NCBI GenBank assembly: GCA_963797055.1
Contig: CAWCOD010000002.1
Coordinates: 491,598 to 555,597, forward strand
Origin: an uncultured Holophagae bacterium
GTDB taxonomy: Bacteria; Acidobacteriota; Thermoanaerobaculia; Thermoanaerobaculales; Sulfomarinibacteraceae
Direction: 5' to 3'
Length of the DNA: 64,000 nt
In this document: positions 9,926 through 62,167 of the stretch, piece by piece
Layout of the letters: every line of letters begins with the position of its first letter
How positions within the stretch are numbered: the stretch's first letter is position 1
The notes under the pieces: generated by a model
Seen by the model: the letters and a program-made list of their open reading frames with translations, nothing else
What the model was told of the DNA's origin: nothing
The model's database searches: none
Made by a program: the position numbers and the translations under genes

Positions 9926-9931
9926 CGGAAC

Positions 9932-25153: not shown

Positions 25154-25181
25154 TTCGATGAGTACTCTTTGTGACCCGGAA

Positions 25182-32191: not shown

Positions 32192-32265
32192 AATTGCCTC
32201 CAGAGGGGGGAAGTGTAGCACCGTGGGGATCAGGGAGCAGGGGTCGGCCCCCTCCCTTTGCCCCC

Positions 32266-32307
32266 AAATTCGGAATTCGAAATTCGGAATTCGGCCCACC
32301 CGCCCGG
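32266..32307. repeat. 7-mer array (AATTCGG/AATTCGA) plus CCCACCCGCCCGG box
   Basis: AAATTCGGAATTCGAAATTCGGAATTCGG followed by CCCACCCGCCCGG. Confidence 0.9.
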
Positions 32308-33995: not shown

Positions 33996-34067
33996 CGAGC
34001 GGGCAGCGGGCAGGAAGCAGGGGGCAGTCGGGGTTGGAGGTGCGGTCGGATTGAACCACCCTCTCCG

Positions 34068-34096
34068 CTCCCTGCTCCCTGCTCCCTGCTCCCTGG
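34068..34096. repeat. 7-mer array (CTCCCTG x4)
   Basis: GCTCCCTGCTCCCTGCTCCCTGCTCCCTGG, between the xerD stop and the SLT gene start. Its complement GGGAGCAGG recurs at 7670, 9720, 20450 and 32230. Confidence 0.85.
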
Positions 34097-35012: not shown

Positions 35013-35043
35013 GGGTCTATGGTAACCGCCGCCCGCCCGGTGT

Positions 35044-35137
35044 GGAACGGTTGAACGTTCAACGTTCTCCTCCGCCCACCCGCCCAATTGCAGATTGCAG
35101 ATTGAAAATTGCAGATTCCGTCCCCCCACCCGCCCGG
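35044..35137. repeat. Composite: GAACGTT array / CCGCCCACCCGCCC / ATTGCAG array / CCCCCCACCCGCCCGG
   Basis: Two different 7-mer arrays, each followed by a C-tract box, immediately upstream of xerD. Confidence 0.9.
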
Positions 35138-35242
35138 AGGGAGAGGTCGCGATGATCGGACGTGCCGTCCTCGAGAGTCAAAAGTCGAAATTCGAAAGTC
35201 CCCGCCCTCCCACCCGAGGAGTGGGCGCAACGGGCGGGCGTG

Positions 35243-35317
35243 CCGGGTATAACGTTGTGCGGCCAAATGCCCTCGAGCGGTCATCAATCGTCAGGGCCGC
35301 ACAACGTTAATACCGGG
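35243..35317. repeat. Hairpin element family E, copy 2
   Basis: CCGGGTATAACGTTGTGCGGCC, about a 30-nt loop, then GGCCGCACAACGTTAATACCGGG. Same architecture as copy 1, with both arms changed together. Confidence 0.8.
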
Positions 35318-35369
35318 CAACCTCGGGGAGCGCGCTGGGAGAATCGGCGCGATCAATCGAGGCAAAAAG

Positions 35370-35545
35370 GCAGCCGAGACGGTTGCTCCACAATGTTCTC
35401 TTCGTTGGGTTCGATATACCGATTTCACCGCGCCGATTCTCCGGCCGCGCTTCCCGTGAGGATGCCAGGCACGCCGATTCGCTCCAGCGGGCCGAATCGG
35501 TTTGTCGACCTCGGCGAATCGGGATGCCAGGCACCTCCGAGGAAT
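35370..35545 (-). repeat. Dispersed repeat family B, copy 6 (inverted, long form)
   Basis: Reverse complement of the 9738..9925 architecture, including the extension. Confidence 0.85.
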
Positions 35546-35781
35546 GACTTTCTCCCAACGCGCTCCTCGGGGGGGCGGGTGAGTTTCGAAACTCGAAATT
35601 CGAAATCAACACCTGGGTCCGTAAAAGCGTATAGCTTATAGCCCGGGTGGGTGAGGAAGCGAGTCCGAGCCCCGAATCCCGAGCCCCGATCGGAGTATCA
35701 GCGGACGGAAGAGTCGGAACCCATTGTCCGGGCGGAAGCATCGCCCCCTGAATTTGGTTTGCCCAGGAGGGAGAGCAACGA

Positions 35782-37875
35782 GTGAATCCGGTCACACCCA
35801 CGGTTCTGTCACGGTTGGAGCGGCTCCACGAGTCCATTGTGCGGGTAATCCGCGGCAAGTCGGAACTGGTGGACTCGCTGATGGCGGCTCTGATCGCCCG
35901 GGGCCACGTTCTGCTCGAAGACGTGCCCGGAGTGGGCAAGACGACCCTCGCCCAGGCCCTCGCGCGTTCGCTGGACCTCGATTTTCATCGCATCCAGTTC
36001 ACATCCGACACCCTGCCCTCAGACATCATCGGGATCTCGGTCTACCGTCAGAACAGGGGTGACTTCGAGTTCATGCCCGGACCGCTGTTCGCCAACGTGG
36101 TACTGGCCGACGAGATCAACCGAGCGGCCCCACGGACCCAATCGGCGTTATTGGAGGCCATGAGCGAGAAGGCCGTGACCGTTGACAAGACCCGTCACGA
36201 GCTTGCCGTGCCGTTCCTGGTTGTGGCGACCCAGAATCCTATCGAATCAACCGGCACCTATCCTCTGCCCGAGAGTCAGTTGGACCGATTCCTGATGAGG
36301 CTCTCCATGGGTTACCCCGGCCGAGGGGAGGAGCTCGAGTTGCTTCGTACCGGAGGCACCGAGCCGGAGCTCGAGCAGTTGCAGCCTGTGCTCACGGCTG
36401 GCGAGGTGTTGGAGCTGCAGCACGAGGTGTCCGACGTCCACGTCAGCGACGAGTTGCGCCGCTACCTGATGGACGTTGTGGAACGAACACGATCGCACGA
36501 GGCGCTGGCGTTGGGGGTTTCCACTCGAGGGACTCTCGCGTGGCAGCGATGCGCCCAGGCGCTTGCCCTCGTCAAGGGACGACCGTTCGTGATTCCGGAT
36601 GACCTGCAGGAGACCTCCGAGGCGGTGTTGGCCCATCGCGTTCTGTTGGCCGATCCCCTTGTGGACGACGGATGGGAGCGGAGTCGACGGGAGCGGGCGG
36701 TGATTCGCTCGATTCTGGAGAGCGTTGTCCCGGTGCCCACGGTGATGAAAGCAGCGGGAGTTCGGGAGTCGGGAGCCCGGACTCGGATGGTCTCGAGGAC
36801 CGTGGTTCGACGGCCCAATGTGCCGAGTCCCGGCTCCCGAGCTCCCGAATCCCGCCTTCCAGAAGACCGCCATGAGCTCGGCTCGACGCCTTCCGAGGGT
36901 TTCAGACTCAAGTTGACACGTTGGGGTGGGCTCTTCCTCCTTTCGATGCTTATCCTCGGGTTTGCCGCCGTCAACACAGGCAACAACGCACTGATGGCTC
37001 TCTTCGGCCTCGCTCTGGCCAGCTACGCCGTGTCCGGCGTCTGGTCACGGCAGGTCCTGGGCGGAATCGAGGTCCGGGCCGCCGCACCAAGAGAGATTTT
37101 TGCGGGCCGCCCGGCAATGGTGGATGTGGAGCTGCGCAACGGATGCCGGCTGTTGCCCGCTTATGGGATCGTGCTGCGTGATCGGTTGGGACGGGTCCTG
37201 CTGACCGAAGGGCTTCTGACGGCCTCTGGCGTGAGCCAACACAGCATCGAGCTTCAATTTGCGGACCGGGGTTGGACTGCGATCGGCCCGTGGACGCTCG
37301 AGGTCGTTTTGCCGCTCGGTTTTTTTGTCAAGTCGAAGGTCGTGATGGACCGGCGCGAGGTGCTGGTGTACCCAAGGTTGTTGCCGAAGACTGCAATGAC
37401 ATCCGAGGGTCGTGACCGTGGCCGGTACACAGAGAACTTCGATGACCGCGGTCGGGAGGGCGAGGTGGTTCAACTCCGCACCTTCCGCGAGGGCGACGAC
37501 ACCCGACAGATGCACTGGAAGCAGACCGCGCGGCAACAACAGCCGATCGTGACCGACCGCCAGCGGCGTGCTTCCGATCCTGTCTTCTTTGTCGTCGATC
37601 CGCGGCTGAGCGACGTCGCCGACCCGGTTCTCAGGGACCGGTTCGAGACCATGCTGTCGGAGGTGGCCACAGGCGTTGTCCGCCGTCTGGAGAGAGGTGC
37701 CGAGGTGGGTCTCGTGGTGGGAGATGAAGTATTTCCGCCCGAACGATCGACGCAGCGCGCGGCCCGCCTGCTCCGTCCACTCGCCGAGGTCGAGCCGCGC
37801 CGGCCCGATGCTCCTCCGCCGCGCAGGGTGACCGCTCGGTTGTCTCGCCACCACAGCGTCGGGGGTGGAGCGTGA
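35782..37875 (+). CDS. MoxR-type AAA+ ATPase and DUF58 protein in one uninterrupted ORF
   Basis: 697-aa ORF. Residues 1-320 are MoxR-like (PGVGKTT, VLADEINRAAPRTQSALLEAM). Residues from about 370 are DUF58-like (LFLLSMLILGFAAVNTGNNALMALFGLALA, FREGDDTRQMHWKQTAR). There is no stop between the parts. A possible internal DUF58 start is ATG 36745, in the context CGGTGATGAAA. Confidence 0.8.
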   Translation: MNPVTPTVLSRLERLHESIVRVIRGKSELVDSLMAALIARGHVLLEDVPGVGKTTLAQALARSLDLDFHRIQFTSDTLPSDIIGISVYRQNRGDFEFMPGPLFANVVLADEINRAAPRTQSALLEAMSEKAVTVDKTRHELAVPFLVVATQNPIESTGTYPLPESQLDRFLMRLSMGYPGRGEELELLRTGGTEPELEQLQPVLTAGEVLELQHEVSDVHVSDELRRYLMDVVERTRSHEALALGVSTRGTLAWQRCAQALALVKGRPFVIPDDLQETSEAVLAHRVLLADPLVDDGWERSRRERAVIRSILESVVPVPTVMKAAGVRESGARTRMVSRTVVRRPNVPSPGSRAPESRLPEDRHELGSTPSEGFRLKLTRWGGLFLLSMLILGFAAVNTGNNALMALFGLALASYAVSGVWSRQVLGGIEVRAAAPREIFAGRPAMVDVELRNGCRLLPAYGIVLRDRLGRVLLTEGLLTASGVSQHSIELQFADRGWTAIGPWTLEVVLPLGFFVKSKVVMDRREVLVYPRLLPKTAMTSEGRDRGRYTENFDDRGREGEVVQLRTFREGDDTRQMHWKQTARQQQPIVTDRQRRASDPVFFVVDPRLSDVADPVLRDRFETMLSEVATGVVRRLERGAEVGLVVGDEVFPPERSTQRAARLLRPLAEVEPRRPDAPPPRRVTARLSRHHSVGGGA

Positions 37876-39860
37876 CGGCCGGTGCCTTCTATCGGAGGCT
37901 GGCGGGGCTGCTCCTGCTGTGGTCCCTTCTCCCTCTGCCTTTCCTGTACATCGTGATGCCACCGTTTTGGATTACGGCCGGGATTGTCGCTCTGGCGTTG
38001 ATCTTGGTCCCGTCGTGGTCGCCGAAGCTGGAGCCGTGGGCCCTCAATCTGATTGCGGTTCTGATCGTGATCGGGGTTGTGGCCGCGGGCGGGATTCGAG
38101 TCGGGCCTCTCCGCCCCCTCGGTCATCTACTGCTCCTGCTGACCGCGGTTCGGGTGAGCCAGATCATCGACCGACGCTCGTTCCTCAAGGCCCTGCCGGC
38201 GATCTTCCTGGTGTGGGTTGTTTCCCTGACGTCGTCGACCCACGTGACGGCCCTTGTCTACTTTGCGGTGTCGGCCGTGGTCTGGTGGTGGACGGGCATG
38301 GAAATCCAATTGGCCGCAGTGGCGGTGGACGATGGCGTTCCCGCGGCTTCCGTCCGACCGAGGCACGCGCTGGTGGCCGCCGTCGTGGCCCTTGCGCTGG
38401 CGGTGCCGGTGTTCGTTTCGGTGCCCAGGCTGCGCTCGCCGTGGCTCGCCGGGAGCGGAGGCGTGCGGAGCGTGACGGGTTTCTCGAGTCGTGTGGAGCT
38501 TTCCGGAATCGGCACCATTCAGGAGTCTCAGGAGCGCGTGCTGGTGGTGCGATCGGTCAACGGTGAGCCCATCAGACCGGAATGGATGAGGCTGCGGGCA
38601 ACCGCCTTCGAGAGGATGACGGTGGAATCCTGGGCGCCGCGGCCTCCGGACCGTTCCGTTCGGCCGCGAAGCGGACTGATATGGCTGACGGAAGGAGACG
38701 AGGACATGGGCGACGCCGCCCAGTTGGAGATCGAACTCGACCGGCCGGACGAGTTCCTCTTCCTGCCCGGCGGTGCGATCGCCGTCGATGTTCCCGAGCC
38801 CGTTCGAATCGATCCGGCGGGGGGAGTCGTCCTCGTGTCGCCGGGGACCGGACCGCTTCATTACACCGTGTGGGTCTCTCGGACAGCTGTCCAACAACGT
38901 CTTGTCCCGCCCCCGAACGGCGGATTGGAGTTCGAGCCGGCCCCGGAGGTGCGCGCCCTGGCCATTCGGATCGCCGCCGGAGCCGCCACCGCCGAAGCCC
39001 GCGCTGCGGCCGTGGAAGCGTACCTCCAAAACGAGTACACCTACTCCATGACAGGGTTGGGGAGGATCGGTCCGGATCCGGTGAGTTGGTTCCTTCTCCG
39101 ATCCAGATCAGGCCACTGCGAGTACTTCGCCGGTGGGATGGCGGTGATGATGGGCGCGCTCGGCGATCCGGCACGAATGGTCGGAGGATACAGCGGTGGC
39201 GATCTGTCTCAGACCGGTGATGAGGTGGTGGTTCGCCAGGCCAATGCACATGCCTGGGTTGAGGTCTGGCTGGGACCGCGGCTGGGCTGGGGAGTCTTCG
39301 ATCCAACTCCGGCCGTCAACCTCCCGCGGCTCAATAAGGTGAATTTGGGAGACCGGTTGCGTTTTGCCTGGGAGAACATCCAGGCGGGTTGGGATAAGTA
39401 TGTCCTGACCTTCGGTGTTGCGGAGCAGATGCAGTTGCTGACCGCTGCTGGCGATCGTCTGGCGGCGGCGCTGAGTTCGTGGCGCCGGCGGGATACGGCG
39501 ATCGTTGTCGGAGCGCTGGCCCTGCTCTGGTTGACGTGGCGGGCGGTGAGGTGGTTTTTGCGCCGTACAAGCGGCGGGCGATCCGCGGGCCCCGCGTCTC
39601 CGGCATCACGGTCGATACGGCGACTGGTGCGTCGTCTTGAACGTTCAGGCGTCACGGTTCCTGTGGGAGCGACGGTCCGTTGGATCGGCCAGGCCGCGAC
39701 TCGCCGGTGGCCGTCGGCGTCCCAGCCGGCTGCCGACCTGGTGTGGCTGGCGGAGCGAGAGCTCTACTCAGAAGACGGGTCGGTCTACGGCCCGGTCGAG
39801 GTCCGCCGGGTCTGGTCCGACCTGCGCCACGCCATTCGCGACTCTCGCCGAGATTTTTGA
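37872..39860 (+). CDS. Transglutaminase-like membrane protein
   Basis: GTGA start/stop overlap with the upstream ORF. N-terminal TM helices. Catalytic core SGHCEYFAGGMAVMMGALGDPARMVGGY ... NAHAWVEVWL ... GVFDPTP. Confidence 0.9.
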   Translation: MTAGAFYRRLAGLLLLWSLLPLPFLYIVMPPFWITAGIVALALILVPSWSPKLEPWALNLIAVLIVIGVVAAGGIRVGPLRPLGHLLLLLTAVRVSQIIDRRSFLKALPAIFLVWVVSLTSSTHVTALVYFAVSAVVWWWTGMEIQLAAVAVDDGVPAASVRPRHALVAAVVALALAVPVFVSVPRLRSPWLAGSGGVRSVTGFSSRVELSGIGTIQESQERVLVVRSVNGEPIRPEWMRLRATAFERMTVESWAPRPPDRSVRPRSGLIWLTEGDEDMGDAAQLEIELDRPDEFLFLPGGAIAVDVPEPVRIDPAGGVVLVSPGTGPLHYTVWVSRTAVQQRLVPPPNGGLEFEPAPEVRALAIRIAAGAATAEARAAAVEAYLQNEYTYSMTGLGRIGPDPVSWFLLRSRSGHCEYFAGGMAVMMGALGDPARMVGGYSGGDLSQTGDEVVVRQANAHAWVEVWLGPRLGWGVFDPTPAVNLPRLNKVNLGDRLRFAWENIQAGWDKYVLTFGVAEQMQLLTAAGDRLAAALSSWRRRDTAIVVGALALLWLTWRAVRWFLRRTSGGRSAGPASPASRSIRRLVRRLERSGVTVPVGATVRWIGQAATRRWPSASQPAADLVWLAERELYSEDGSVYGPVEVRRVWSDLRHAIRDSRRDF

Positions 39861-39955
39861 ATTTTGAATTTTGAATGCTACGACCTTCCAGCCCGACGAC
39901 CCCCCCCGGGCGGGTGGGGGCATTCAAAATTCAGAATTGAGAATTGAGAATTCAG
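39852..39955. repeat. Composite: TTGAATT array / CCCCCCCGGGCGGGTGGGGG / inverted GAATTGA array
   Basis: The left array overlaps the transglutaminase stop codon. The right array is partly its reverse complement. Confidence 0.9.
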
Positions 39956-44384: not shown

Positions 44385-44545
44385 GCTTTGTGGTGCGGCC
44401 GTCTCGGCTGTAATTCTGGCCTTGACTGAATGGGCGAATGCAGGCCGGAGGCCTGCTCCACAATGGCTCTTCTCGTTGGGTTCAATCTACCGACTTCAAC
44501 GCGCCGATTCTCCGACTGCGCTTCCCGTCGATCCGATTTTGACGG
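44385..44545 (-). repeat. Family B 3'-extension module fused to a family A arm
   Basis: TTGTGGTGCGGCCGTCTCGGCTGTAAT ... GCGCCGATTCTCCGACTGCGCTTCCCG, then GACGGTGCCTGGCACCGG. Confidence 0.75.
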
Positions 44546-44589
44546 TGCCTGGCACCGGCCCGGGGGTATGGAAAGACCCTCTTGATTTC

Positions 44590-44757
44590 AGCGCGCCCCT
44601 CTCCCCGCAGCGCTCCCCGAGGTTACTCGCGGCCGGTGGCCGCGGTGACCAGCCGTCACCAGCGGGTGGCCGTAAGGCCTCTGATCCTGCGTACAGGATC
44701 GGACATGGCCGCCGCACACGGCCACGGCCACAACCGCTGCCGCCGGCAGGTTGCCCC
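44590..44757 (-). repeat. Dispersed repeat family F, copy 2 (inverted)
   Basis: Reverse complement shares the same three modules with 18252..18425. Fragments also occur at 5450..5490 and 5893..5930. Confidence 0.8.
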
Positions 44758-44850
44758 CTTAGACATTATTGGGACCTCACGGGATGAATTTGCCAGCACC
44801 TTGGTTCCCAACAATGTCAAAGACGGCACGCCCGCCAGACGCGCCCTCCT
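44755..44850 (+). repeat. Dispersed repeat family D, copy 1
   Basis: CCCCCTTAGACATTATTGGGACCTCACGGGATGAATTTGCCAGCACCTTGGTTCCCAACAATGTCAAAGACGGCACGCCCG is the reverse complement of 54890..54990. Confidence 0.8.
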
Positions 44851-44854
44851 CCCT

Positions 44855-44934
44855 CCGGGTGGGCGGGGGAATCTTTAATCTTTAGTCTGCAATCTGCAAT
44901 CTGGATGCAATTCGCAATTCGCAATCCGTAATGG
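44855..44934. repeat. CCGGGTGGGCGGGGG box plus mixed 7-mer arrays (AATCTTT, CAATCTG, CAATTCG)
   Basis: Box at 44855..44869, then about 65 nt of 7-mer repeats. Confidence 0.9.
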
Positions 44935-45072
44935 ACGGGAGGGGGGTTTCCAGAGCCCCCCCACCCTTCGGGCGGGTGGGGGTGTTCAATGCTCCTTGTT
45001 CCTTGCTCTTTTTCCGAGGGTGTGTGGGCGGAGAATGCGATACCATGGAAGGTACCCCTCTCGAGGGAAACG

Positions 45073-46953: not shown

Positions 46954-47049
46954 CCCGGGCGGGTGGAATCCGCAATTCACAATTCGCAATTCGCAATTCG
47001 CAATTCGAAATACGTATTACGTAATACGAAATGGTCGGGTGGGCGGGGG
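46954..47049. repeat. CCCGGGCGGGTGG / CAATTCG x5 and TACGTAA arrays / GGTCGGGTGGGCGGGGG
   Basis: Lies between the sulfatase-like gene and tmk, with a G-tract box on each side. Confidence 0.9.
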
Positions 47050-49307: not shown

Positions 49308-49339
49308 GGGACCTGGCACGGGACCCGACGCGCCCATCT

Positions 49340-49530
49340 CCCAACCGCGCTCCCCGCGGTTGCCACCCTCGCATTCCGATCTCCATGTCGGTGCCAGGCA
49401 CCGCCGCAGATGTAGCGACCTCGTACTCCGATTCGATTTCGACGGTGCCTGGCACCGGCCCGCGCGTATTGGATGCGCTCCAGAACAGCACGCCCGCCCA
49501 TCGCGCCCCTCACTCCTGGTGGGTGGGGGA
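49340..49530 (-). repeat. Dispersed repeat family A, copy 4 (inverted)
   Basis: Reverse complement of the 5313..5490 consensus. Arms at 49390..49402 and 49444..49456. Confidence 0.85.
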
Positions 49531-49624
49531 TCTTCGTCCTCCATTCGGTAACGGCAACGATAACGGGCTCGGGCTCGGAGACGGAGTCGGGGTTGGGCCG
49601 TATACACTTTCAACACCATCTACA

Positions 49625-49737
49625 GCGGGCGGGCGGGGAATCTGCAATCTGCAATCTGCAATCTGTAATCTATCGCAATTCGAAATGGGCGGGTGGGGGT
49701 TCTCAAAGCCCTATAGCCCGGGCGGGTGGGTGGCGGC
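49625..49737. repeat. GCGGGCGGGCGGGG / AATCTGC x4 array / GGGCGGGTGGGGG / CCCGGGCGGGTGGGTGGCGG
   Basis: Three G-tract boxes and one array, ending 30 nt before the SSS transporter start. Confidence 0.9.
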
Positions 49738-49768: not shown

Positions 49769-51250
49769 ATGGGAGAGACATTCGTACCCTGGCTCCTGTT
49801 CCTCGTCTACGTCCTGACGATCATCGGCCTGACCTGGTGGAATCGCCGCAAGTCGTCGACGATGAGTGATTTTGCCGTCGGCAGTCGGAGCGTTCCGCCG
49901 TTTTTTGTCGGCCTGTCCCTGGCGGCCAATATGACGTCCGTGGCCACCTTCGTGATCAACCCGGGGTTGGTGCACGCGTATGGTTGGGCCGGTGTCATGG
50001 GTTATGGGGTTGCGGCGCCGCTGGGGATCTTTCTGGGCCTGATCGTGATGACCAAGAAGTTCCGCCGAGTTGGCGAACAGGTCACCGCTCTGACGATCCC
50101 CCAATGGATTGGCGACCGTTACGGCGACCGAAGGCTGACGGTCTTTTTTGCCGTTGTGAGTCTGCTCCAGGTCACCTTCCTGGTGCTCATCGTCACCGCG
50201 GTCTCGTTGGTTCTGATGGCGGTGCTCGAACTCCCCATGTTGATCGCTCTCACCATCGTGATCGGATTCACCTTTGCGTACATCTTCTTTGGTGGGGCGA
50301 GCGTCCACGTATGGTCCAACAGCGTCCAGGCCATCACCATGGTGGTCGTGGCCGGTCTATTGGTCGCCTCAGGATCCGAGTTCTTCGCCGACGGCGTCGG
50401 CGGCTTTTTCGAACGACTGGCAGCGGTGGGGCCGTACTATGCCGATGTCACAAATCCGGACAGCCTCCTGTTCCGTGATCTGTTCGAAGTCCTGGTGGCC
50501 AACTTCATTATTGGCATCGCGATCATCATGCAGCCCCACATCATGTCGAAGGCGCTGTATCTGAGGTCGGAACGGGACGTCAATCGCTACCTGATCACGG
50601 CCATGGTGGCCGGCACGATCTTCACCTCGGTCTTGCTCGTCGGTCTTTTCGCCCAACTGACCCTCGGTGGCGATATCGCACCCGACCATGTGGTGGCGAC
50701 CTACATCGCCACCGACTTCGCCCCCGGTTTGCGGGCCCTGATCATGCTGGGTGTCTTGGCGGCGGGCTTCTCGACCCTCGAAGGGGTGATTCTCGCGCTG
50801 TCGACCATCTTCGCCAATGATCTCTACGCCCCGTTGGCCGGCTTCGCCGGAGTTGATATCGATCGAATCACCGCCCGTCTTCTGCCGGTGGGTCGGATCT
50901 TTCTGGTGGCCCTGGCGCCGATCACCTTCGTGCTGGCCAGGGATCAGATCCTGGATCCTTCTCTGTCGGTGGCGATTTTCGCGCAGAACGGCATATATGG
51001 GCTCTTTGCGGCCACCTTCGCCCCGGTGCTGTTCGGCATGTTCAGCCAGCGGGCGACCAAGGGCCTGGCGTTGACCGCCGCGGTGGCGGCGCTGGTGATC
51101 CATTTCGGCATGTACTACGGCAAGATCACCATGTACCACAACAACCCGGCGGTACCCGCCGCCACGGCGCTCGTGGTGTCCACGTTGATCATGGCAGTCG
51201 GCGTCGCGTTTGCCAGGCCCGCTCAGGCTGAGGAGGGCGTTACACGTTAA
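49769..51250 (+). CDS. Sodium:solute symporter (SSS) family transporter
   Basis: ORF 49214..51250. The 5' 555 nt is repeat sequence. ATG 49769 gives MGETFVPWLLFLVYVLTIIGLTWWNRRK. About 13 TM helices. Confidence 0.85.
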   Translation: MGETFVPWLLFLVYVLTIIGLTWWNRRKSSTMSDFAVGSRSVPPFFVGLSLAANMTSVATFVINPGLVHAYGWAGVMGYGVAAPLGIFLGLIVMTKKFRRVGEQVTALTIPQWIGDRYGDRRLTVFFAVVSLLQVTFLVLIVTAVSLVLMAVLELPMLIALTIVIGFTFAYIFFGGASVHVWSNSVQAITMVVVAGLLVASGSEFFADGVGGFFERLAAVGPYYADVTNPDSLLFRDLFEVLVANFIIGIAIIMQPHIMSKALYLRSERDVNRYLITAMVAGTIFTSVLLVGLFAQLTLGGDIAPDHVVATYIATDFAPGLRALIMLGVLAAGFSTLEGVILALSTIFANDLYAPLAGFAGVDIDRITARLLPVGRIFLVALAPITFVLARDQILDPSLSVAIFAQNGIYGLFAATFAPVLFGMFSQRATKGLALTAAVAALVIHFGMYYGKITMYHNNPAVPAATALVVSTLIMAVGVAFARPAQAEEGVTR

Positions 51251-51318
51251 ACGTTAAAAGTCAGACGTTTAAAGCCGAACGCTCAACGCAGGCTCTCTCG
51301 AAGATTCCCTTCGCGAAT

Positions 51319-51365
51319 CCGGGTGGGCGGGCGGAACGTTGAACGTGCAACGTTCAACGTGTAAC
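51319..51365. repeat. CCGGGTGGGCGGGCGG plus GAACGTT/CAACGTG array
   Basis: Box, then AACGTTGAACGTGCAACGTTCAACGTGTAAC. A related ACGTTAA array is at 51243..51290. Confidence 0.9.
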
Positions 51366-54733: not shown

Positions 54734-54800
54734 CCCCCCCGCCCGCCCGACCAATTGCAGATTGCAGATTGCGAATTGCGGATTCCGCCCACCCGCCCGG
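54734..54800. repeat. CCCCCCCGCCCGCCCG / ATTGCAG array / CCGCCCACCCGCCCGG
   Basis: Same array type and box arrangement as 35072..35137. Starts at the stop codon of the radical SAM gene. Confidence 0.9.
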
Positions 54801-54889
54801 ATCGTGAGAGGTTGTGATGGGCGGGCGTGCCGTCCAAGGGAGTTGAAAGTCCAAAGTCAACAGTTGAATGTCCCCACCCGCCCAACCGA

Positions 54890-54990
54890 AGCGAAAGGGC
54901 GCATTGGTCGGGCGTGCCGTCTTTGACATTGTTGGGAACCAAGGTGCTGGCAAACTCATCCCGTGGGGTCCCAACAATGTCTAAGGGGGC
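54890..54990 (-). repeat. Dispersed repeat family D, copy 2
   Basis: Inverted copy of 44755..44850. Confidence 0.8.
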
Positions 54991-56192: not shown

Positions 56193-56284
56193 CGCTTTTA
56201 CCTCCGTCCGGTCATATGGTTCACACTACCATCGACCGGTTCGGCGAGCTTTTTCCGCCGGAGCGCCATGTGATGGCGCGATGA

Positions 56285-56400
56285 TCGGAGGTGCCTGGCA
56301 TCCCGATTCGCCAAGGTCGAAAATAGTACCTTCTCGTTGAGCCGAATCGGCGTGCCTGGCAGCCTCACGGGGAGTCCGCTGAGAATTGGGGCGCGACGAA
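56285..56400 (+). repeat. Dispersed repeat family B, copy 8
   Basis: Core stems with a unique AT-richer loop (AAGGTCGAAAATAGTACCTTCTCGTTGAGCC). Confidence 0.85.
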
Positions 56401-56435
56401 GCCGCCAAGGCGTCAATGACCGAACATCCGTCCCC

Positions 56436-56645
56436 TCAGCGCGCCCCTCTCCCCGCAGCGCTCCCCGAGGTTGCCACCCTCGCATTCCGATCTCCATGTC
56501 GGTGCCAGGCACCGCCGCAGATGTAGCGACCTCGTGCTCCGATTCGATTTCGACGGTGCCTGGCACCGGCCCGCGCGTATTGGATGCGCTCCAGAACAGC
56601 ACGCCCGCCCATCGCGCCCTCCTCCGATCCGGGTGGGCGGGGGAA
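56436..56645 (-). repeat. Dispersed repeat family A, copy 5 (inverted)
   Basis: Near-identical to 49340..49530 over about 190 nt. Arms at 56501..56513 and 56555..56567. Confidence 0.9.
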
Positions 56646-56712
56646 TCTGCAATCTGCAATCTGCAATCTGCAATCTGCAATCTGCAATTCGCAATTCGCA
56701 ATTCGTAATTCG
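56629..56712. repeat. CCGGGTGGGCGGGGG plus the longest array (AATCTGC x5, then AATTCGC/AATTCGT x4)
   Basis: Box at 56629..56643; about 68 nt of 7-mer repeats, ending about 18 nt from the stop of the EAL gene. Confidence 0.92.
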
Positions 56713-56729
56713 TGTGTGGGTGAGAGGGG

Positions 56730-58916
56730 TTACGCCAACCCGGCGTCCTGGAGCGAACGGTGCATGGACGCGACGCGGTCGTGGAGCTGGCGGTAGAGCA
56801 TCATCACCGACGGGTACTCCCGCTCGCCGAGAAAGAACGCGAGGCTGTCTCCATCGGCGTGGAGACATCGGTAGGCGTCAATGATGGAGGTGGCTGAGTC
56901 CTTGGGTAGGAGGGGCACGATCCTCTCACTGAGCCACTCGACGGCGTCGTCCACCGCCGCCGAGGGCCGAGGAGCGTCATCGTGGTGGTCGAGCCGCACC
57001 GCCTCCACCAGCCCCCGGACCCAGTCCAGTGAGGGCGCCCTGGCGGTGTTGAGTGCCGCGCACACGCGGTCCAGTGTCGCGCCGAGATCCAGCTCCTCCT
57101 CGGCGACGACGCCGTCGAGATAGCCTCGAGCGAGGAGGTTTCGGAGCTGTTTGAAGAACAGTGAGCTGCGAAAGACGAGTTCGTTCTTGTCGCCGACCTG
57201 GGAGAGCACCGCCAGGAGTTCCTCGTTGAGGATTTCCGCACCCTTCATGAAGCTCGGAAACGGCACGCCGATGGTGTGGTGGAAGTGACCGAGTGCGATG
57301 TATCGCTCCCGCAACTGGTCCTCGTCGTCGGACATGGACTCGATGAAGCTGGCGCGCTGGCGCTCCACGAGGTTGCGGATCTGCTCTGAATCCCGAAAGA
57401 AGGAGCGGAAGTGGTCGTTGGAGAGTATGCGGTCGTAAAAGGCGTTGAATGCCTTGTCCAGATAGGGGGTGATCTGTTCCAGTGCAGGTCGATTGAAGGC
57501 TGGTGTAGGCAGGGTCTGGGGACGCTCCCGGTACCCCTCCACCAGCCCGGGCAGCGACAGCGGCATATCAAAAAGCCGGCCCTGACCGAGGTCGACGCCG
57601 ATGGTCCGGAGTCGCTCCAGTACCCCCTCTGATTCCACGTGCTCGGCAACAACTTTGAGGTCCAGACTCTTCGCGAGGTTCGCGATCGCCAATACGACCT
57701 TGTACGCCTCAGGGGAGTGCTCGATCTCTCGGACCAGCGAGCCATCGAGCTTGAGGTGCGAAATCACCTTTGACACCGCCAAATCGGACACCGTCTTGAG
57801 GGATGAATACCCGGTGCCGAAGTCGTCCACAGCAAACTTTATGTCGTGTTGGGTGTGGAGCTCCTGGATGATGTCGAGGTGTTCGACGATCGCCTGCTCG
57901 GTCAACTCGAGAACCACGACCATGCCGAGACCCTCGCCGCGCAGCCGGTTCATCGTCGTACTCATGAGATCACGAAAATCAGCCGACAGCAGGGACACAG
58001 GAGAGACGTTGATGAAGAGGTGGCCGGTGACCCCAACGACCTCCTGGGCGGCATCGTTCAATCGGGCGAAGACCTGCGAATCCAGCTCGACGATCTCGCC
58101 GAGTTGATAGACCGAATCGATGAATTCGGTGGCCGTCATCAGTCCGTCGTCGGTTCGGATCCTGGCGAGGACCTCGACGTTGTACAGATTGCGGGTCGCC
58201 AGCTCGATGACCGGTTGGAAATGGACCTCCACAGCGCCTCGGCGCAGGGCATCCATGATCCGACCCGCCTTGGCTTCGCGCTGACGCACCGAGGTGCGCC
58301 ACTGCCGGTGGTCCATGTCCCCGCGCAGAATGACCGGCTCCAGATGGGACGGGCGAGTCCTGAGCTGGGAGTATCCGAGGATCTTGAGCACCTCGGTGGC
58401 GTCGAGGTCGTCATCCCCGGGCACCTCCAGCGAGACCATGGCCACCCGGGGGGCCACCGATCTGCGGTGACGGTTGAGGGCCACCGAGTTGCAGGCTCGT
58501 TGCAGGCGGTGGACGATCTCGGACATGGTCTGGGAGTCCGAACTGCCGTGAAGGATGACGAACTGTGCTCCCGCGATCTGGGCGATCCGTGCGTCGGGAT
58601 CCAACCCCCGGAGCACGACCTCGGTTGTGGCCTGGATCAACTCCTGGAGCACGTCGCCGATGTCGAATCCGTAGATCTGGTTCACCACGGCCAGGTTGGT
58701 CAGAATGCCGGCGGTTACCGTGAGACCCTCGGTGCCGATCCGTCGGTCGAGGGAATCCATCAGCTCGGCCTTCCCGGTCACCATCCGATGACCCTCGGAA
58801 CCGAGCTTCCTGAGGTTTTGAGGGCTCGCGAAACCCTTCTCCACGAGCTCGAGCAGCGCGAGCCGAACCGGCTCGCTCAGACCCGTCCTCGGCATCGAAG
58901 AATGGGCTTCAGTCAT
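56730..58916 (-). CDS. Degenerate GGDEF / EAL phosphodiesterase with C-terminal globin-coupled-sensor-like domain
   Basis: ORF 56730..59402; ATG 58916 (MTEAHSSMPR). The GGDEF position reads GAQFV. EAL domain motifs: EVLARI, DDFGTGYSSLK, KLDGSLV, GQGRLF. Then a protoglobin-like segment (FYDRILSNDHFRSFF ... RYIALGHFHHTIGVPF). Confidence 0.8.
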   Translation of the reverse strand: MTEAHSSMPRTGLSEPVRLALLELVEKGFASPQNLRKLGSEGHRMVTGKAELMDSLDRRIGTEGLTVTAGILTNLAVVNQIYGFDIGDVLQELIQATTEVVLRGLDPDARIAQIAGAQFVILHGSSDSQTMSEIVHRLQRACNSVALNRHRRSVAPRVAMVSLEVPGDDDLDATEVLKILGYSQLRTRPSHLEPVILRGDMDHRQWRTSVRQREAKAGRIMDALRRGAVEVHFQPVIELATRNLYNVEVLARIRTDDGLMTATEFIDSVYQLGEIVELDSQVFARLNDAAQEVVGVTGHLFINVSPVSLLSADFRDLMSTTMNRLRGEGLGMVVVLELTEQAIVEHLDIIQELHTQHDIKFAVDDFGTGYSSLKTVSDLAVSKVISHLKLDGSLVREIEHSPEAYKVVLAIANLAKSLDLKVVAEHVESEGVLERLRTIGVDLGQGRLFDMPLSLPGLVEGYRERPQTLPTPAFNRPALEQITPYLDKAFNAFYDRILSNDHFRSFFRDSEQIRNLVERQRASFIESMSDDEDQLRERYIALGHFHHTIGVPFPSFMKGAEILNEELLAVLSQVGDKNELVFRSSLFFKQLRNLLARGYLDGVVAEEELDLGATLDRVCAALNTARAPSLDWVRGLVEAVRLDHHDDAPRPSAAVDDAVEWLSERIVPLLPKDSATSIIDAYRCLHADGDSLAFFLGEREYPSVMMLYRQLHDRVASMHRSLQDAGLA

Positions 58917-59006
58917 GACATATTCAATGTACCCGACGGGCTGGAAAACGATGGCGCCGCCGTGTGGCGGGCCATACACGAGGGTGTTTTCTTGGGGTCG
59001 AACGTG

Positions 59007-59330
59007 ATGGTCGGTACAATTCGTGCCATGCAGCGGGCCGGAACACGACGGGAGCAGATCACCACGCGATTGCGAGAGTCGGTGGTCGACTTCCAACAGC
59101 TTCGGCTTGATTTCGAGCTGACGGTCAGCGCCTTGGAGGAAGACCTGCGCCACGTGGAGCGGAGCGTGCGGCCCCGCGGCGAAAGGCTCGAGATCGAACC
59201 CGCGCGGTGCATCGCCTGCGATTTCCGGTTCACCAAACGCGCGCTGCACCCGCCGGGCCGTTGTCCTCAGTGCCGCGAGCACCGCAGTTGCCGGGCCCTG
59301 GTTTCGTGTCCGGTGAGCTTCGCACTCTGA
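59007..59330 (+). CDS. Hypothetical coiled-coil / zinc-ribbon protein
   Basis: The terminal 107 codons of ORF 57846..59330 lie outside the antisense EAL gene. CIAC-X13-CPQC zinc-ribbon pattern after a helical segment. The start is uncertain (ATG 59007 or 59028). Confidence 0.4.
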   Translation: MVGTIRAMQRAGTRREQITTRLRESVVDFQQLRLDFELTVSALEEDLRHVERSVRPRGERLEIEPARCIACDFRFTKRALHPPGRCPQCREHRSCRALVSCPVSFAL

Positions 59331-59829
59331 GGCGAGGCCACGTCCATCGTGAGTCGTTTCCCATATACCTGGAGGAAGGACTGGTGCGGGCGGGAGTGTC
59401 AATGGGGGAGGAGGAGCTGGGGGCTCGGATGGAAAAGTCGAGATGCGAAATTCGAATTCTCCCGCTCGGGCCGTTGGGGAGAGTGTGGCCTCGTGTCAGG
59501 TCCAGGAACGAAGATCGAAGAATGAAGACCTCGGGCTCCTGAATCGAAACGAGAAAACCCACTCGACCATATCGACCGCCAATTTCTCATTTCCCATTTC
59601 CCCGTGCGGCCTGCCCAACCGGAGTGGCCGTGTGGTGCCGAAATGCGGGAATTCGCGTGGCACGCTCGGGTTGTTTATTAGGGAGTCCCGACCCGAATAC
59701 GTGATCGAGAGCATCGAGTCTGAAGAAATCGACGACTGGACACTGGCGCGGCGACATCCGGCGAGTAAGAATCTCCCGGGTGCTTTATGTGGATGGGCGT
59801 GCGCCTGCGCCGCGCCTGGAGTTTGTCCC

Positions 59830-60696
59830 ATGAGCCTCGCCGCGGGAGCAACGATCGGCCAGTACACGATCGTTAGGTCGCTCGGCTCGGGCGGCATGGG
59901 CGAGGTCTTCCGAGCCCAGGACGGACGGCTCGACCGTGAGGTCGCACTCAAGGTCCTGCCGAGAGAGTTCGCCAGCGACGACGAGCGGATGAGCCGTTTC
60001 GTGCGCGAAGCGAAGTCGGCGTCGGCTCTCAACCACCCGAACATTCTGACGATCTACGAAATCGGTGAAGCGAGCGGGTACCACTATCTGGCGACCGAAC
60101 TCGTTGTCGGGCGAACGCTGCGCGAGGTCATCGGGTCCGGCCCGTTGCCGGTGGGAGATTGCGTTGAGATCGCGGCGCAGGTCGCCGCAGCCCTCGCCGC
60201 CGCCCACGACGCCGGCATTGTCCACCGCGACATCAAGCCCGAGAACCTCATGGTCCGGGACGACGGCCTGGTCAAGGTGCTCGACTTCGGTCTTGCCAAG
60301 TGGCGCGACCCCCAGGCGACCGATGTCTTCGATTCGGAGGGACTGACGCTCGACACGCCTCACACCCGACCCGGCATGCTGCTCGGCACGGTTGCCTACA
60401 TGTCACCCGAACAGTCGCGCGGCAAACCGGTCGACGGGCGTACCGATCTGTGGAGCCTGGGCGTCGTGCTGTACGAGATGCTGACCGGCCGCCAGCCGTT
60501 CGAGGGAGATTCGTCGATCGATGTGCTCGCCGACATCCTCCGCCGTGACCCGCCGCCGCTCACCCTTCGTCGCGAGGAGGCTCCAGCCGAGCTCGCCGCC
60601 TTGGTCGGCTGGCTGCTTGCCAAGCGCCCCGCCGATCGTCCGGCATCAGCGCGCGAGCTCCGCTTGCGGCTCGAGGAGGCCCGAGACACGACTTGA
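59830..60696 (+). CDS. Serine/threonine protein kinase (catalytic domain)
   Basis: ORF 59443..60696; ATG 59830. GSGGMGEVFRA, VALKVL, HRDIKPENLMV, DFGLAK and AYMSPEQ. Confidence 0.88.
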   Translation: MSLAAGATIGQYTIVRSLGSGGMGEVFRAQDGRLDREVALKVLPREFASDDERMSRFVREAKSASALNHPNILTIYEIGEASGYHYLATELVVGRTLREVIGSGPLPVGDCVEIAAQVAAALAAAHDAGIVHRDIKPENLMVRDDGLVKVLDFGLAKWRDPQATDVFDSEGLTLDTPHTRPGMLLGTVAYMSPEQSRGKPVDGRTDLWSLGVVLYEMLTGRQPFEGDSSIDVLADILRRDPPPLTLRREEAPAELAALVGWLLAKRPADRPASARELRLRLEEARDTT

Positions 60697-60745
60697 CATT
60701 CCGGCCGCGCTCGAGCGCCCGTTGTCCGCCGCCGGGTCCTTATCC

Positions 60746-62167
60746 GTGCCGCCGCTCCACTCGAGCAGCTCGCACTCGGGCGTCCGCCACGCGATCGCAG
60801 TGCTGCCGTTCCGAAACCTGAGTACGGACCCCGAAAATGAGTACTTCTGCGACGGACTGGCGGAGGAGCTGCTCAACGCGCTGGCGAAGGTTGACGGATT
60901 ACGGGTGGCGGCACGTACCTCCGCCTTCGCCTTCAAAGGCAAGGAGGACAGCCTCAGCGAGATCGGCCGCGCGCTCGGCGTCACGACGGTCCTCGAAGGG
61001 AGCGTCCGCACATCGGGCAACCGCATGCGCATCGCGGTCCAGCTCGCCAACGCCGCTGACGGTTTCCACGTTTGGTCGGAGCGCTACGACCGGGAGATGA
61101 CCGACATCTTCGACGTTCAGGATGAGATCACCCTGTCGGTGGTGGATGCGCTCAAGATCAGGCTATTCGGCGATGAGAGGGTGGCGGCGCTGAAGCGCGG
61201 CACCGAGGACGCCGAGGCCTACCAGCTCTACCTCAAGGGCAGATATAAATGGAACCAGCGAACCGCGGCGTCACTGCGTGAGGCGGTCGAATTCTACCGA
61301 CGGGCGATCGCGCAGGACCCCGGATACGCGCTCGCATACGCCGGCCTCGCTGAGGCCTACGTACTGTTCGGGTGGCTGAGCGTCGGGCCTCCGCGTGAGA
61401 GCATGCCGCTGGCGCGGGCGGCGGCCCTCAGGGCGCTCGAACTCGATGACACCCTGGCCGAGGCGCACGCGGCGCTCGGGGTCTACCTCTCGTTCTTCGC
61501 CTGGGACCAACCCGCCTCGGAACGCGCCCTCCGCCGTGCGATCGAGCTCGAGCGGAGCTTTGCGACGGCGCACCACTGGCTAGGAAACATCCCGCTGCTC
61601 GCCATGGGACGCTGGGACGAGTCGCTCACCTCGATTCGGAGGGCCGCGGAGCTCGATCCCCTGTCGCCGAGCATCGCCTCGGACCTCGGCGTCACGCTCC
61701 TGTTCGCGCGCCGCTATGACGCGGCGATCTCGCAGTTTGAGATCACCCTGGGTCTGGATCCCGAGTTCTACGTCGCTCGTTACCACCTCGGGCAGGCCCT
61801 GCACTCGAGCGGTCACCCCGAGCTGGCCGTCACCGAGTATGAATGTTGCCGCGACTCCACCACAGACCCCTGGGTCCAGGCCCTGCTCGGCCGTTCGCTC
61901 GCCGCCGCAGGCCATCGCGACGAGGCGGTCCGCCACCGCGACGAGTTGCTTAAGGATGCGACCCGGCGCTACGTCCCCAACGTCGCCCTGGCGATCGCCC
62001 ACGCCGGGTTGGGTGAAAAAGACGAAGCTTTCCACTGGCTCCAACAAGACCTCACCGAACGTTCTCTCTACCCGCCCTTCTACGCCGTCGACCCGGTCTT
62101 CGACGAGCTGCGCGACGACCCCCGTTTCGACGAGCTCGTGCGCCGCGTCGACCAGGCGAGGCTCTGA
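60746..62167 (+). CDS. TolB-N-like / TPR repeat protein, probably the detached C-terminal part of the kinase
   Basis: ORF 60521..62167. Domain sequence begins at IAVLPFRNLSTDPENEYFCDGLAEELLNAL, followed by TPR repeats. There is no convincing start or RBS; GTG 60746 is a guess. Confidence 0.7.
   Translation: MPPLHSSSSHSGVRHAIAVLPFRNLSTDPENEYFCDGLAEELLNALAKVDGLRVAARTSAFAFKGKEDSLSEIGRALGVTTVLEGSVRTSGNRMRIAVQLANAADGFHVWSERYDREMTDIFDVQDEITLSVVDALKIRLFGDERVAALKRGTEDAEAYQLYLKGRYKWNQRTAASLREAVEFYRRAIAQDPGYALAYAGLAEAYVLFGWLSVGPPRESMPLARAAALRALELDDTLAEAHAALGVYLSFFAWDQPASERALRRAIELERSFATAHHWLGNIPLLAMGRWDESLTSIRRAAELDPLSPSIASDLGVTLLFARRYDAAISQFEITLGLDPEFYVARYHLGQALHSSGHPELAVTEYECCRDSTTDPWVQALLGRSLAAAGHRDEAVRHRDELLKDATRRYVPNVALAIAHAGLGEKDEAFHWLQQDLTERSLYPPFYAVDPVFDELRDDPRFDELVRRVDQARL

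Follow-up and report, generated by a model that had tools for sequence, protein, structure and literature searches.

The locus at 56629-56712 of the 64-kb stretch analysed here (the window; 64,000 nucleotides of contig CAWCOD010000002.1 from an uncultured Holophagae bacterium) raises the question of why a box of short G tracts lies directly beside tandem copies of an AT-rich heptamer, and why the same arrangement is found between many other genes of this stretch. An initial annotation, made from the sequence alone, described the arrangement as an element of unprecedented architecture, in which a box able to form a G-quadruplex or i-motif is joined to an array that could act as a length-variable spacer. 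The analysis described below indicates that boxes and arrays are enriched and coupled, that they have expanded together in one sub-clade of Thermoanaerobaculia, and that they are sorted between genes with a polarity that is blind to gene orientation. We lean towards the view that box and array represent one end of a lineage-specific, non-coding family of interspersed mosaic repeats, comparable to repetitive extragenic palindromes and bacterial interspersed mosaic elements (REP/BIME) or to elements resembling miniature inverted-repeat transposable elements (MITEs).

The window (GC 63.5%, rounded to 64% below) consists of ~52.8 kb of coding and ~11.2 kb (18%) of intergenic DNA. Tandem Repeats Finder (TRF) reports 40 period-7 rows in it, as well as eight of period 6 and five of period 8, whereas period-7 rows average 1.85 in 20 first-order Markov shuffles. 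GGGYGGGCGGG matches 11 times against 0.44 expected, a number reached in 0 of 100 shuffles, and G3-N-G3-N-G3 matches 32 times. The AT-rich arrays (GC 0.14-0.45) are all intergenic by our gene map; the array at 963 lies within a mechanically listed open reading frame (ORF), yet upstream of conserved MacB coding sequence, and homology to the syntenic relative L001 begins at 995. A box is present within 12 nt of 18 of the 27 AT-rich arrays, whereas an average of 1.75 arrays, and never more than 7, had a box this close when the same boxes were scattered at random over intergenic space 2000 times. These results indicate that the pattern is real and that boxes and arrays are coupled, as initially annotated, and every locus listed in that annotation is found again, those with 8-mer and 6-mer units included (Table 1). 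Two of its statements hold in part. The boxes were said to lie outside coding regions, and 34 of 38 loosely defined boxes do so, but four are within genes. They were also said to sit beside AT-richer arrays, but the remaining 9 of the 27 have no box, and some of the listed arrays are GC-rich and of a different kind (GCTCCCT at 34067 and CTCGGG at 25026). When one-sided cases are read on the G-rich strand, the box precedes the array in 12 and follows it in 3; three arrays are flanked on both sides by boxes in the same orientation. The orientation of the unit is tied to the strand of the box, AATCTGC, for example, being found only ever on the G strand. Arrays occur at about one per intergenic region, and their lengths do not follow a simple geometric decay, 31 of 61 being 28-35 nt long and only five exceeding 35 nt.

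The sorting of the boxes between genes is the main new result. On the plus strand, the mean relative intergenic position is 0.30 for C-type boxes (n=31) and 0.82 for G-type boxes (n=25; Mann-Whitney p=6e-8). C precedes G in 24 ordered pairs and G precedes C in two, and seven of the eight intergenic regions with both box types are perfectly sorted, across ++, +-, -+ and -- gene pairs. When only the nearest box within 60 nt of a gene end is considered, the sense strand of the box is G-rich by 11:1 upstream of starts and C-rich by 11:1 downstream of stops (start versus stop, Fisher p=1e-4). These two statements reduce to one geometric rule that takes no account of gene orientation: C-type boxes lie to the left and G-type boxes to the right. 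Because the order 5'-C...G-3' is unchanged by reverse complementation, this polarity holds on both strands. Arrays on the 5' side of intergenic regions are the richer in purines and those on the 3' side the richer in pyrimidines (p=0.04), and the resulting order on both strands is 5'-(purine-rich array)(C-boxes)...(G-boxes)(pyrimidine-rich array)-3'. Regions whose two arrays share a unit family, such as 882/963, 39855/39922 and 51238/51335, carry them as inverted copies of each other. The polarity fits the arms of an inverted-repeat element if the array-bearing arm faces the gene, and it does not fit protein sites or quadruplex motifs that are each oriented independently. A hairpin whose C-arm is 5' and whose G-arm is 3' reads identically when inverted, and such an arrangement, with the array-bearing arm facing the nearest gene, may be the cause of the polarity. 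The coupling and the polarity have apparently not been described before.

Homologs of the SMC protein place the window in Acidobacteriota, class Thermoanaerobaculia, with named matches in Thermoanaerobaculales and Candidatus Sulfomarinibacteraceae. It was compared with two syntenic relatives, L001 (SMC 86% identical) and L002 (73%), with L058, an 8-kb locus of a Sulfomarinibacteraceae metagenome-assembled genome (MAG), with the metagenomic sequence L154, and with the more distant L120-L122 (SMC identity 69%, 60% and 57%), of which 23.5 kb each was examined. Array density is 0.4-0.8/kb in the window, L001, L002 and L058, and box density is 0.5-0.7/kb in the window, L001 and L002 and 0.12/kb in the 8-kb L058 locus. 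In L120-L122, 2, 1 and 0 arrays are present in 23.5 kb (0-0.08/kb), and the box density is 0.09-0.21/kb. This result indicates that arrays and boxes have co-expanded in one Thermoanaerobaculia sub-clade, being dense in the former sequences and near-absent in the latter. L058 contains arrays and repeat modules like those of the window, and one of its arrays has a box directly adjoining. The box-array architecture, for which the initial annotation proposed a search of related MAGs, is found again in L001, L002, L058 and L154. These are independent assemblies from different samples, and the recurrence argues against the assembly artefact that the same annotation had allowed for.

The best-supported description of the arrangement is that of a GC-rich inverted-repeat module bearing an AT-rich heptanucleotide microsatellite on its outer side. 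The commonest sub-family is module D, in which the G-box forms the 3' arm ~20 nt downstream of a C-rich arm, with the consensus (GACGG)CACGCCCGCCCA-TCGCGCCCT...GATCC-GGGTGGGCGGGGG. The box, initially taken for a free-standing motif, is an arm of this ~45-nt repeated module, which is in turn part of a mosaic of larger interspersed repeats. With a covariance model built for module D, the focal locus scores 65.2 bits (56600-56644), and at E<0.01 there are 14 copies in the window, five in L001 and two in L058, and no copies in L002 or L120-L122. At the focal locus, module D closes a ~440-nt mosaic of repeat modules at 56275-56713, of which the locus is the right end and whose parts recur independently elsewhere. 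Copies of these parts are detected by self-BLAST at 3835-3982, 5285-5465, 5731-5817, 9747-9835, 13821-14177, 18447-18534, 24757-24861, 35450-35540, 44529-44624 and 49329-49533. Modules A-D recur in varying combinations across the window, and interspersed repeats make up 7.2 kb (11%) of it by self-comparison. The compound array of the focal locus also has counterparts: AATCTGC and AATTCGC units are joined at 44870-44925 and 49639-49686, in the same order, and at 54754-54784, and 46967-47032 holds AATTCGC-type units only. The 13-nt palindromes GGTGCCAGGCACC and GGTGCCTGGCACC of module C are always paired and exactly 54 nt apart (3887/3941, 5365/5419, 13894/13948, 49390/49444 and 56501/56555), and the related pair GRTGCCWGGCAYC makes up module A at eight sites. 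These palindrome pairs look like paired operator-type sites or hairpin feet. L002 has repeats of its own, namely a 110-nt unit present 1.9 times (21787-21995) and arrays of the 8-mer AGGTTTAA at 8090-8131, 13541-13576 and 17843-17877.

Comparison of loci and relatives indicates that box and array are found together at different sites and that the arrays change by whole units. The region 56596-56709 aligns with 44823-44932 at 86% identity over box and array alike, and the hairpin with its GATCTTC array at 9933-10001 matches a non-orthologous site of L001 at 94%. The mosaic element of the window is 99.5% identical to L001 9473-9865, with a couple of base differences in 393 nt, whereas the flanking genes are ~83% identical. 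The length differences within this tract are a 14-nt (two-unit) indel of the AACGTT array, a change in (CCCG)n copy number, a single-base indel inside a G-box, and an array and box at the G-box edge that are present in L001 and absent from the window. The proposal that array length varies is borne out by the two-unit difference. Two tracts of the window are 98-100% identical to L001, namely 13830-14250, which contains the mosaic element, and 15940-16890 (L001 ~6800-7760). The latter, ~950 nt long, covers an ordinary gene start according to a sliding identity profile. Functional constraint on the mosaic element was rejected as the reason for its 99.5% identity, because this ordinary gene start is equally near-identical; for the same reason, the tracts are best read as products of recent recombination between the two lineages, although cross-contamination or polishing between co-assembled relatives is an alternative to this reading of the alignments. 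At the edge of the first tract, just upstream of the start of a PNP-family gene, (CGGG)6 at 14258-14281 corresponds to approximately three copies in L001 (~9400), so that the boxes, too, behave like microsatellites, with a period of 4.

Between orthologous genes the same architecture is retained, but unit and copy number are altered. After the SMC stop codon, a box or hairpin with an adjacent array is present in the window, L001, L154 and L002, but the array is of a different kind or length in each (Table 1). The 3'-end modules turn over quickly, and their presence varies, the PNP-to-lactamase junction having no module in the window. A layout consisting of a G-box, four to five copies of (C/G)ACTTT(C/T), ~5 nt, a Shine-Dalgarno sequence and ATG precedes five GH genes in three genomes, namely two paralogs in the window, one gene in L001 and two paralogs in L002. 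The units of these leaders have all been switched together, being CAACTTT in the window and GACTTTY in L002. This leader is probably under selection, because its layout is kept while the intergenic DNA around it is unalignable at that divergence. The idea that the arrays are amplified target-site duplications was rejected, because the two ends of one element carry different units.

The heptamer is also found outside this clade. When one genome per species is scanned for (AATCTGC)x3, at least 117 loci are obtained, and the matches listed include Chloroflexota, several acidobacterial classes, Planctomycetota, Gemmatimonadota, Bacteroidota, Betaproteobacteria, Cyanobacteria and others. Among these listed matches, a G-box lies beside the (AATCTGC)n array only at the Sulfomarinibacteraceae locus, suggesting that the box coupling is lineage-specific. 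An inverted (GCAGATT)n partner is present within 70 nt upstream in 47 of the 134 (AATCTGC)n arrays among the matches listed and downstream in none of the 134. These (GCAGATT)n...(AATCTGC)n pairs are distributed across at least six phyla among the same matches, and their polarity is that of the window. Examples of 5'-(GCAGATT)n-short spacer-(AATCTGC)n-3' are L009 7698-7749, L045 253-300, L047 3578-3638 and one in L088. The status of AATCTGC as a special unit could not be demonstrated, the viral contigs giving 11 matches against 3, 15 and 0 for composition-matched controls. Gene context in the other phyla is convergent for 8 of 11 classifiable inverted arrays, and 23 are assigned to the inside of an ORF by a crude ORF caller, a result that is confounded by the lack of stop codons in every one of the six frames of the arrays.

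With respect to established classes of repeat, the arrays agree with heptanucleotide long simple sequence repeats (SSRs). They are in excess over shuffles, they are non-coding, as expected for heptamers because the unit is not a multiple of three, and they change by whole units between relatives, the difference between L001 and L154 at the SMC 3' end being counted among these changes. The modules agree with REP/BIME mosaics in that modules A-D are variously combined and in that C- and G-type boxes are sorted as inverted brackets. REP are imperfect palindromes of 20-40 nt with stem-loop potential; their 5' foot bears a conserved GTAG or CGTC tetranucleotide (PMC3333891, PMC3733652), and they flank an associated RAYT (TnpA-REP) gene. 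This tag is not found here, there being no GTAG or CGTC 5' of the module D stem, and GACG, the complement of CGTC, lies on the wrong side. The STRR heptamers of heterocystous cyanobacteria have the units CCCCAGT, TTGGTCA and CAACAGT; here the units are AATCTGC, AATTCGC, GATCGAA, CAACTTT, AACGTTG and others, and the host is an acidobacterium. The exclusion of CRISPR by the initial annotation stands, since CRISPR repeats measure 23-50 nt, alternate with unique spacers and usually accompany cas genes, whereas the units here are 7 nt long without spacers and Pfam scans of the window reveal no cas domains. No Rfam family reaches its gathering score in the window, and the low-threshold matches are hairpin-like miRNA noise (E>0.2).

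The mechanism that we propose for the mosaic repeat family is as follows. Box and array would be copied jointly to new intergenic sites, as suggested by the box and array order that the loci have in common. The array would then gain or lose whole units, and mutated units would spread within it; its changes in length are seen between relatives, and slippage is their probable cause. The GC-rich boxes would fix the limits of the slippage-prone AT-rich tract, and they may also favour slippage by pausing replication. The majority of copies are probably intergenic filler, selfish or close to neutral, and some may have been recruited, such as the G-box, array and Shine-Dalgarno leader of the GH genes. 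Several results weigh against this proposal. The gene boundaries, on which the polarity statistics hinge, are our own calls from GC3, Pfam and homolog alignments. L002 is rich in arrays and boxes though it is without modules A-D, so that the coupling must predate the module D family or extend beyond it. The conservation of the GH leader down to 73% SMC identity points to selection on at least some copies. The peaked array length is not predicted by pure neutral slippage, although its lower side is shaped by the detection threshold. Most copies of module D have a predicted 9-10-bp GC stem with a ~20-nt loop, but the fold energies of the box hairpins are mostly no better than those of dinucleotide shuffles (focal module D, -26.5 kcal/mol, z=-0.12), exchange of upstream regions between loci does not weaken the pairing of the boxes in a duplex-energy swap test, and the module D alignment to the covariance model shows no covariation, because 84.5% of its cells are paired against 84.8% after shuffling. 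As for mobility, the ~30 larger ORFs of the window scanned against Pfam include no transposase, a XerC/D-like protein being the only recombinase, and no target-site duplication or clean pair of empty and filled sites was found.

It is possible, but in our judgement not probable, that the elements are instead dedicated transcript boundaries, in which box-array-box units would serve as dyad-symmetric punctuation of transcription units and the AT-rich array as a ~31-nt spacer. Possible roles of this kind are those of bidirectional terminators or insulators, of 3'-end hairpins that stabilise mRNA, of 5' leaders, and of nucleoid-protein sites such as the L linker of E. coli BIME-1, which is associated with IHF. 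The strict polarity relative to gene ends and the modal array length of 28-35 nt agree with this explanation. So do the order of stop codon, C-box, array and C-box, which recurs behind many terminal genes and is kept, despite unit turnover, at the 3' end of the SMC orthologs of four genomes, and the GH leader kept in three genomes; furthermore, REP/BIME are reported to terminate transcription, to stabilise mRNA and to bind IHF, gyrase and Pol I (PMC3333891). However, geometry alone explains the polarity equally well, transcription not being invoked, and the modules are variably present at orthologous junctions, as noted above for the PNP-to-lactamase junction. Unlike the GC-rich, short-looped stem of an intrinsic terminator, the hairpins are not followed by a U-tract, the arrays 3' of the G-arm carrying 2-4 U per 7 nt, and an intrinsic-terminator consensus scan of the window gives 14 sites against 12.4 in shuffles, 44852 being the only module matched, and weakly; the initial judgement that the arrays are not simple terminators is in accord with this. 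A textbook intrinsic terminator, ACCGGGGCG-TTTC-GGCGCCCCGG followed by TTTTTTT (25060-25181, minus-strand sense), is present after the DHO dehydrogenase gene at 25182-26174, and the lineage therefore needs no substitute terminator. Canonical sigma-70 promoter sites are not enriched in the window. A more general proposal is that inverted heptamer arrays of fixed polarity, with the purine-richer arm 5' and the pyrimidine-richer arm 3', are widespread functional punctuation of bacterial intergenic DNA. We consider this doubtful; it is based on the 47:0 polarity across phyla among the matches listed, the polarity in this lineage, the ~31-nt modal length and the conserved GH leader. The punctuation might be a strand-symmetric transcript-boundary, nucleoid-protein or replication-related element, to which this clade would have added GC-rich C-box/G-box hairpins in the middle of the dyad, slippage serving to adjust the copy number of the arrays.

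Regulation of nearby genes by G-quadruplexes or i-motifs formed by the boxes, with the arrays tuning the spacing, is unlikely. The boxes do consist of G3 tracts with 1-nt loops, four-tract motifs number 20 in the window against 8.9 in shuffles, and quadruplex-forming G-rich heptamer repeats are documented in Xanthomonas and Nostoc (PMC4692102). Nevertheless, the four G3 tracts that an intramolecular quadruplex needs are present in only 4 of 26 box loci, the typical box GGGTGGGCGGGGG having three, and in the main family the complementary C-rich arm ~20 nt upstream would provide a duplex that competes with the quadruplex. The polarity is also opposite to that reported for the Xanthomonas repeats, whose sense strand is the G-rich one after stops (PMC4692102). 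The quadruplex or i-motif initially suggested is accordingly unlikely for most boxes. Still less probable is an explanation by Rho utilisation (rut) sites, according to which the C-box, array and C-box on the mRNA after stop codons would form a bipartite C-rich loading site for Rho, and the G-sense boxes before starts, with the same very low probability, would reflect avoidance of premature termination. The 11:1 preference for C-rich boxes within 60 nt after stops and the total module length of ~65-80 nt, which resembles the RNA footprint of Rho, are in its favour. However, the 80 nt after stops show no net excess of C over G (mean (C-G)/(C+G) -0.001; C>G in 26 of 52 regions), the arrays in the C-box-sense orientation are purine-rich with G>C, and the start-proximal boxes of divergent genes obey the polarity too, so that one geometric rule suffices. 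The least probable explanation, and one that is largely refuted, is that neutral microsatellites and unrelated G-rich motifs independently share intergenic space, or that both result from misassembly. Both features are indeed confined to the intergenic 18% of the window, and the arrays without a box are compatible with independence, but the adjacency is ~ten-fold above random intergenic placement, box and array are coupled in orientation by 12:3, and their similarity extends jointly over several loci and genomes. The mosaic repeat family is the reading retained below.

The elements of this family appear to work like a combination of two known themes, heptanucleotide SSRs and REP/BIME. The claim that no described element has this architecture must be limited accordingly: both themes are known, whereas the literature yielded no description of the box-array coupling, of its polarity, of arrays in Thermoanaerobaculia or of AATCTGC arrays. 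In most SSR-rich genomes, the most abundant long SSRs are heptanucleotide repeats, which have been proposed to arise by polymerase slippage (Mrazek 2007, as cited in PMC4679880 and PMC4692102). Bacterial long SSRs resemble the present arrays in having tandem 7-nt units that are over-represented, intergenic, low in copy number and variable between relatives, with slippage proposed. The arrays differ in that many AT-rich units are present in one GC-rich (64%) genome, in place of one or a few dominant units, and in that they abut a GC-rich box in fixed orientation at about one array per intergenic region. Among the named heptamer systems are the cyanobacterial STRR and the quadruplex-forming GGGAATC/GGGGAYT repeats of Xanthomonas and Nostoc. 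The latter share with the present arrays the period of 7, a preference for about four units, a location within ~50 bp of starts or stops and variation at the same locus among related species (PMC4692102). They differ in that every unit contains a G-tract, four units forming a quadruplex, whereas here a separate period-4 box, usually with three tracts, accompanies AT-rich units; their strand polarity relative to genes is opposite, as stated above.

The TAACTGA repeats of marine Beggiatoaceae, cyanobacteria and Bacteroidetes are present in 2-6 copies just upstream of start codons, in Beggiatoaceae among others, and are comparable to the G-box, (CAACTTT)n and Shine-Dalgarno leaders; a post-transcriptional role is suspected for them (PMC4679880). 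Unlike the system described here, they have one unit genome-wide, no flanking GC-rich box and no 3'-end modules (PMC4679880). GC-rich palindromes in mosaics with variable linkers are the theme of REP/BIME in Enterobacteria and Pseudomonas, which are likewise abundant, intergenic, variable between strains in tandem copy number and located at the ends of transcription units, and some of whose linkers, including that of BIME-1, bind IHF (PMC3333891, PMC3733652). The present modules differ in that the loop is ~20 nt long (4-5 nt in REP), the GTAG/CGTC tag is lacking, the linker is a heptamer microsatellite and no RAYT gene is found among the larger ORFs of the window scanned against Pfam. MITEs are resembled by the 200-450-nt composites that are bounded by inverted C-box/G-box ends, fill intergenic regions (13819-14204) and differ in presence or absence between relatives. 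In contrast to MITEs, the modules occur independently and in different combinations, and neither a target-site duplication nor a cognate transposase was found.

Table 1. Boxes, heptamer arrays and associated features (positions refer to the window)
Feature	Position	Strand	Remark
Focal G-box CCGGGTGGGCGGGGG	56629-56643	+	3' arm of module D
Module D: C-arm CACGCCCGCCCA, ~22-nt loop, G-arm TGGGCGGGGG	56599-56644	+	Predicted 10-bp GC hairpin
Heptamer array (AATCTGC)x6.4	56644-56688	+	TRF score 90, 100% matches
Second sub-array (GCAATTC / AATTCGC)x4.1	56684-56712	+	Compound microsatellite with the AATCTGC array
Degenerate second G-box GTGTGTGGGTGAGAGGGG	56713-56729	+	Between array and stop of EAL/protoglobin gene
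EAL/protoglobin gene	56730-59402	-	
Remainder of mosaic repeat (modules A-C)	56275-56598	+	
Module A: hairpin GGTGCCTGGCATC...GTGCCTGGCA	56285-56371		Built on GRTGCCWGGCAYC
Module B: short repeat	~56440-56480		
Module C: two palindromes GGTGCCWGGCACC (GGTGCCAGGCACC / GGTGCCTGGCACC)	56499-56569		54 nt apart
TCAGATT x3.3 ... AATCTGC x4.4 inverted pair, then GGGTGGGTGG	882-1007	+	Upstream of MacB start
8-mer loci	3570, 3740		
6-mer loci	5215, 25026		
Stop codon, C-box, (GATCGAA/GAACAAA) array, C-box and module D	5091-5180	-	Array 32 nt
(AACAAAG) array, C-box and module D	5266-5332	-	
GH gene 1 leader: G-box GGGTGGGTGGGCGG, (CAACTTT)x4.7, Shine-Dalgarno, ATG	5918-5990	+	Paralogous copy 7955-8046
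After SMC stop, window: 15-bp hairpin (CCUCCGCCCACCCC/GGGUGGGUGGGGG), then (GATCTTC) array	9928-10002	-	Fold -32.7 kcal/mol, z=-2.24
After SMC stop, L001: C-box, ATTTCGA/ATTGCGA array, C-box			
After SMC stop, L154: C-box, (ATTTCGA)x3.4			
After SMC stop, L002: C-box, 8-mer AGGTTTAA			
Mosaic element from C-box (13822) to G-type end	13819-14281	-	AACGTT-type array 14203-14224; (CGGG)6 14258-14281
(GTTGAAC) array and C-box CCCACCCTCCCTCCC	18201-18246	-	
(AATTCGG)x4 array and C-box	32266-32307	-	
Four C-type boxes with AACGTT, ATTGCAG and TCGAAAG arrays	35029-35215	-	
G-box and (TTCGAAA) array	35569-35606	+	Right side of the intergenic region holding 35029-35215
Inverted array pair (TTTTGAA)3 ... 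(ATTCAAA)4.9 around CCCCCCCC-GGGCGGGTGGGGG	39855-39955	+	
G-box, compound array (AATCTTT, AATCTGC, GCAATTC), further G-boxes	44855-44982	+	86% identical to 56596-56709, array included
G-box, AATTCGC-type array, G-box	46957-47049	+	Array 66 nt
G-box, (AATCTGC)x4.7 array, two more G-boxes	49627-49732	+	
(CGTTAAA) array ... G-box and (AACGTTG) array	51238-51365	+	Between convergent genes
Stop codon, C-box, (ATTGCAG) array, C-box and module D	54734-54916	-	Array 31 nt; second module D copy with CAACTGTTGACTTTGGACTTTCAACTC array

The gene content of the window is that of an ordinary chromosome, including an ABC transporter with MacB, AttH/CrtC, SMC, pyruvate:ferredoxin oxidoreductase, thymidylate kinase and holB, among others. 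A second class of arrays consists of G-rich AGCAGGG/GGGAGCA-type heptamers placed on the sense strand directly after several stop codons (7671-7690, 9721-9745, 20448-20474, 32230-32245 and 34067-34095). This class resembles the Xanthomonas type, and its four-unit members, such as that at 34070-34093, qualify as quadruplex motifs. The most box-rich intergenic region, 35021-35781, adjoins the gene of the XerC/XerD-like tyrosine recombinase (Phage_integrase and SAM_1 domains; 34119-35129, minus strand). At 36755-36854, an inverted pair of GC-rich heptamer arrays (CGGGAGT x4.4 / CCGAGTC x4.4) is called tRNA-Ser(cga) by ARAGORN, probably falsely on account of a long hairpin; these arrays lie within an ORF that fuses MoxR (AAA_3) and DUF58 domains and that may represent two genes. 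The pyruvate:ferredoxin oxidoreductase at 26193-29775 (minus strand) consists of two overlapping ORFs because of a frameshift near 27860, whereas it is a single 1193-aa gene in L001 and L002; the split reflects a pseudogene or a sequencing error. The Ser/Thr kinase ORF at 59443-60696 and the TPR ORF at 60521-62167 overlap in different frames and may be a frameshifted kinase-TPR gene, and the heptamer arrays at 59506-59528 and 59582-59602 fall in an unsupported N-terminal extension of the kinase ORF.

The arrays, being stop-free in all six phases, cause ORFs to be called that are spurious or too long and tRNAs to be called falsely, and the repeats are likely to be hotspots of assembly and annotation error in the MAGs of this group. 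Heptanucleotide repeats have been a long-standing open question since 2007, and the dense arrays of this clade make their cause and role testable. Experimental handles are provided by the fixed partner box, by the mirror-image polarity that is independent of gene orientation, and by the near-isogenic tracts in which gain and loss of units are exposed. The polarity that (AATCTGC)n pairs have in common in many phyla hints that a structural or mechanistic rule of wider validity, and not a quirk of this lineage, is at work.

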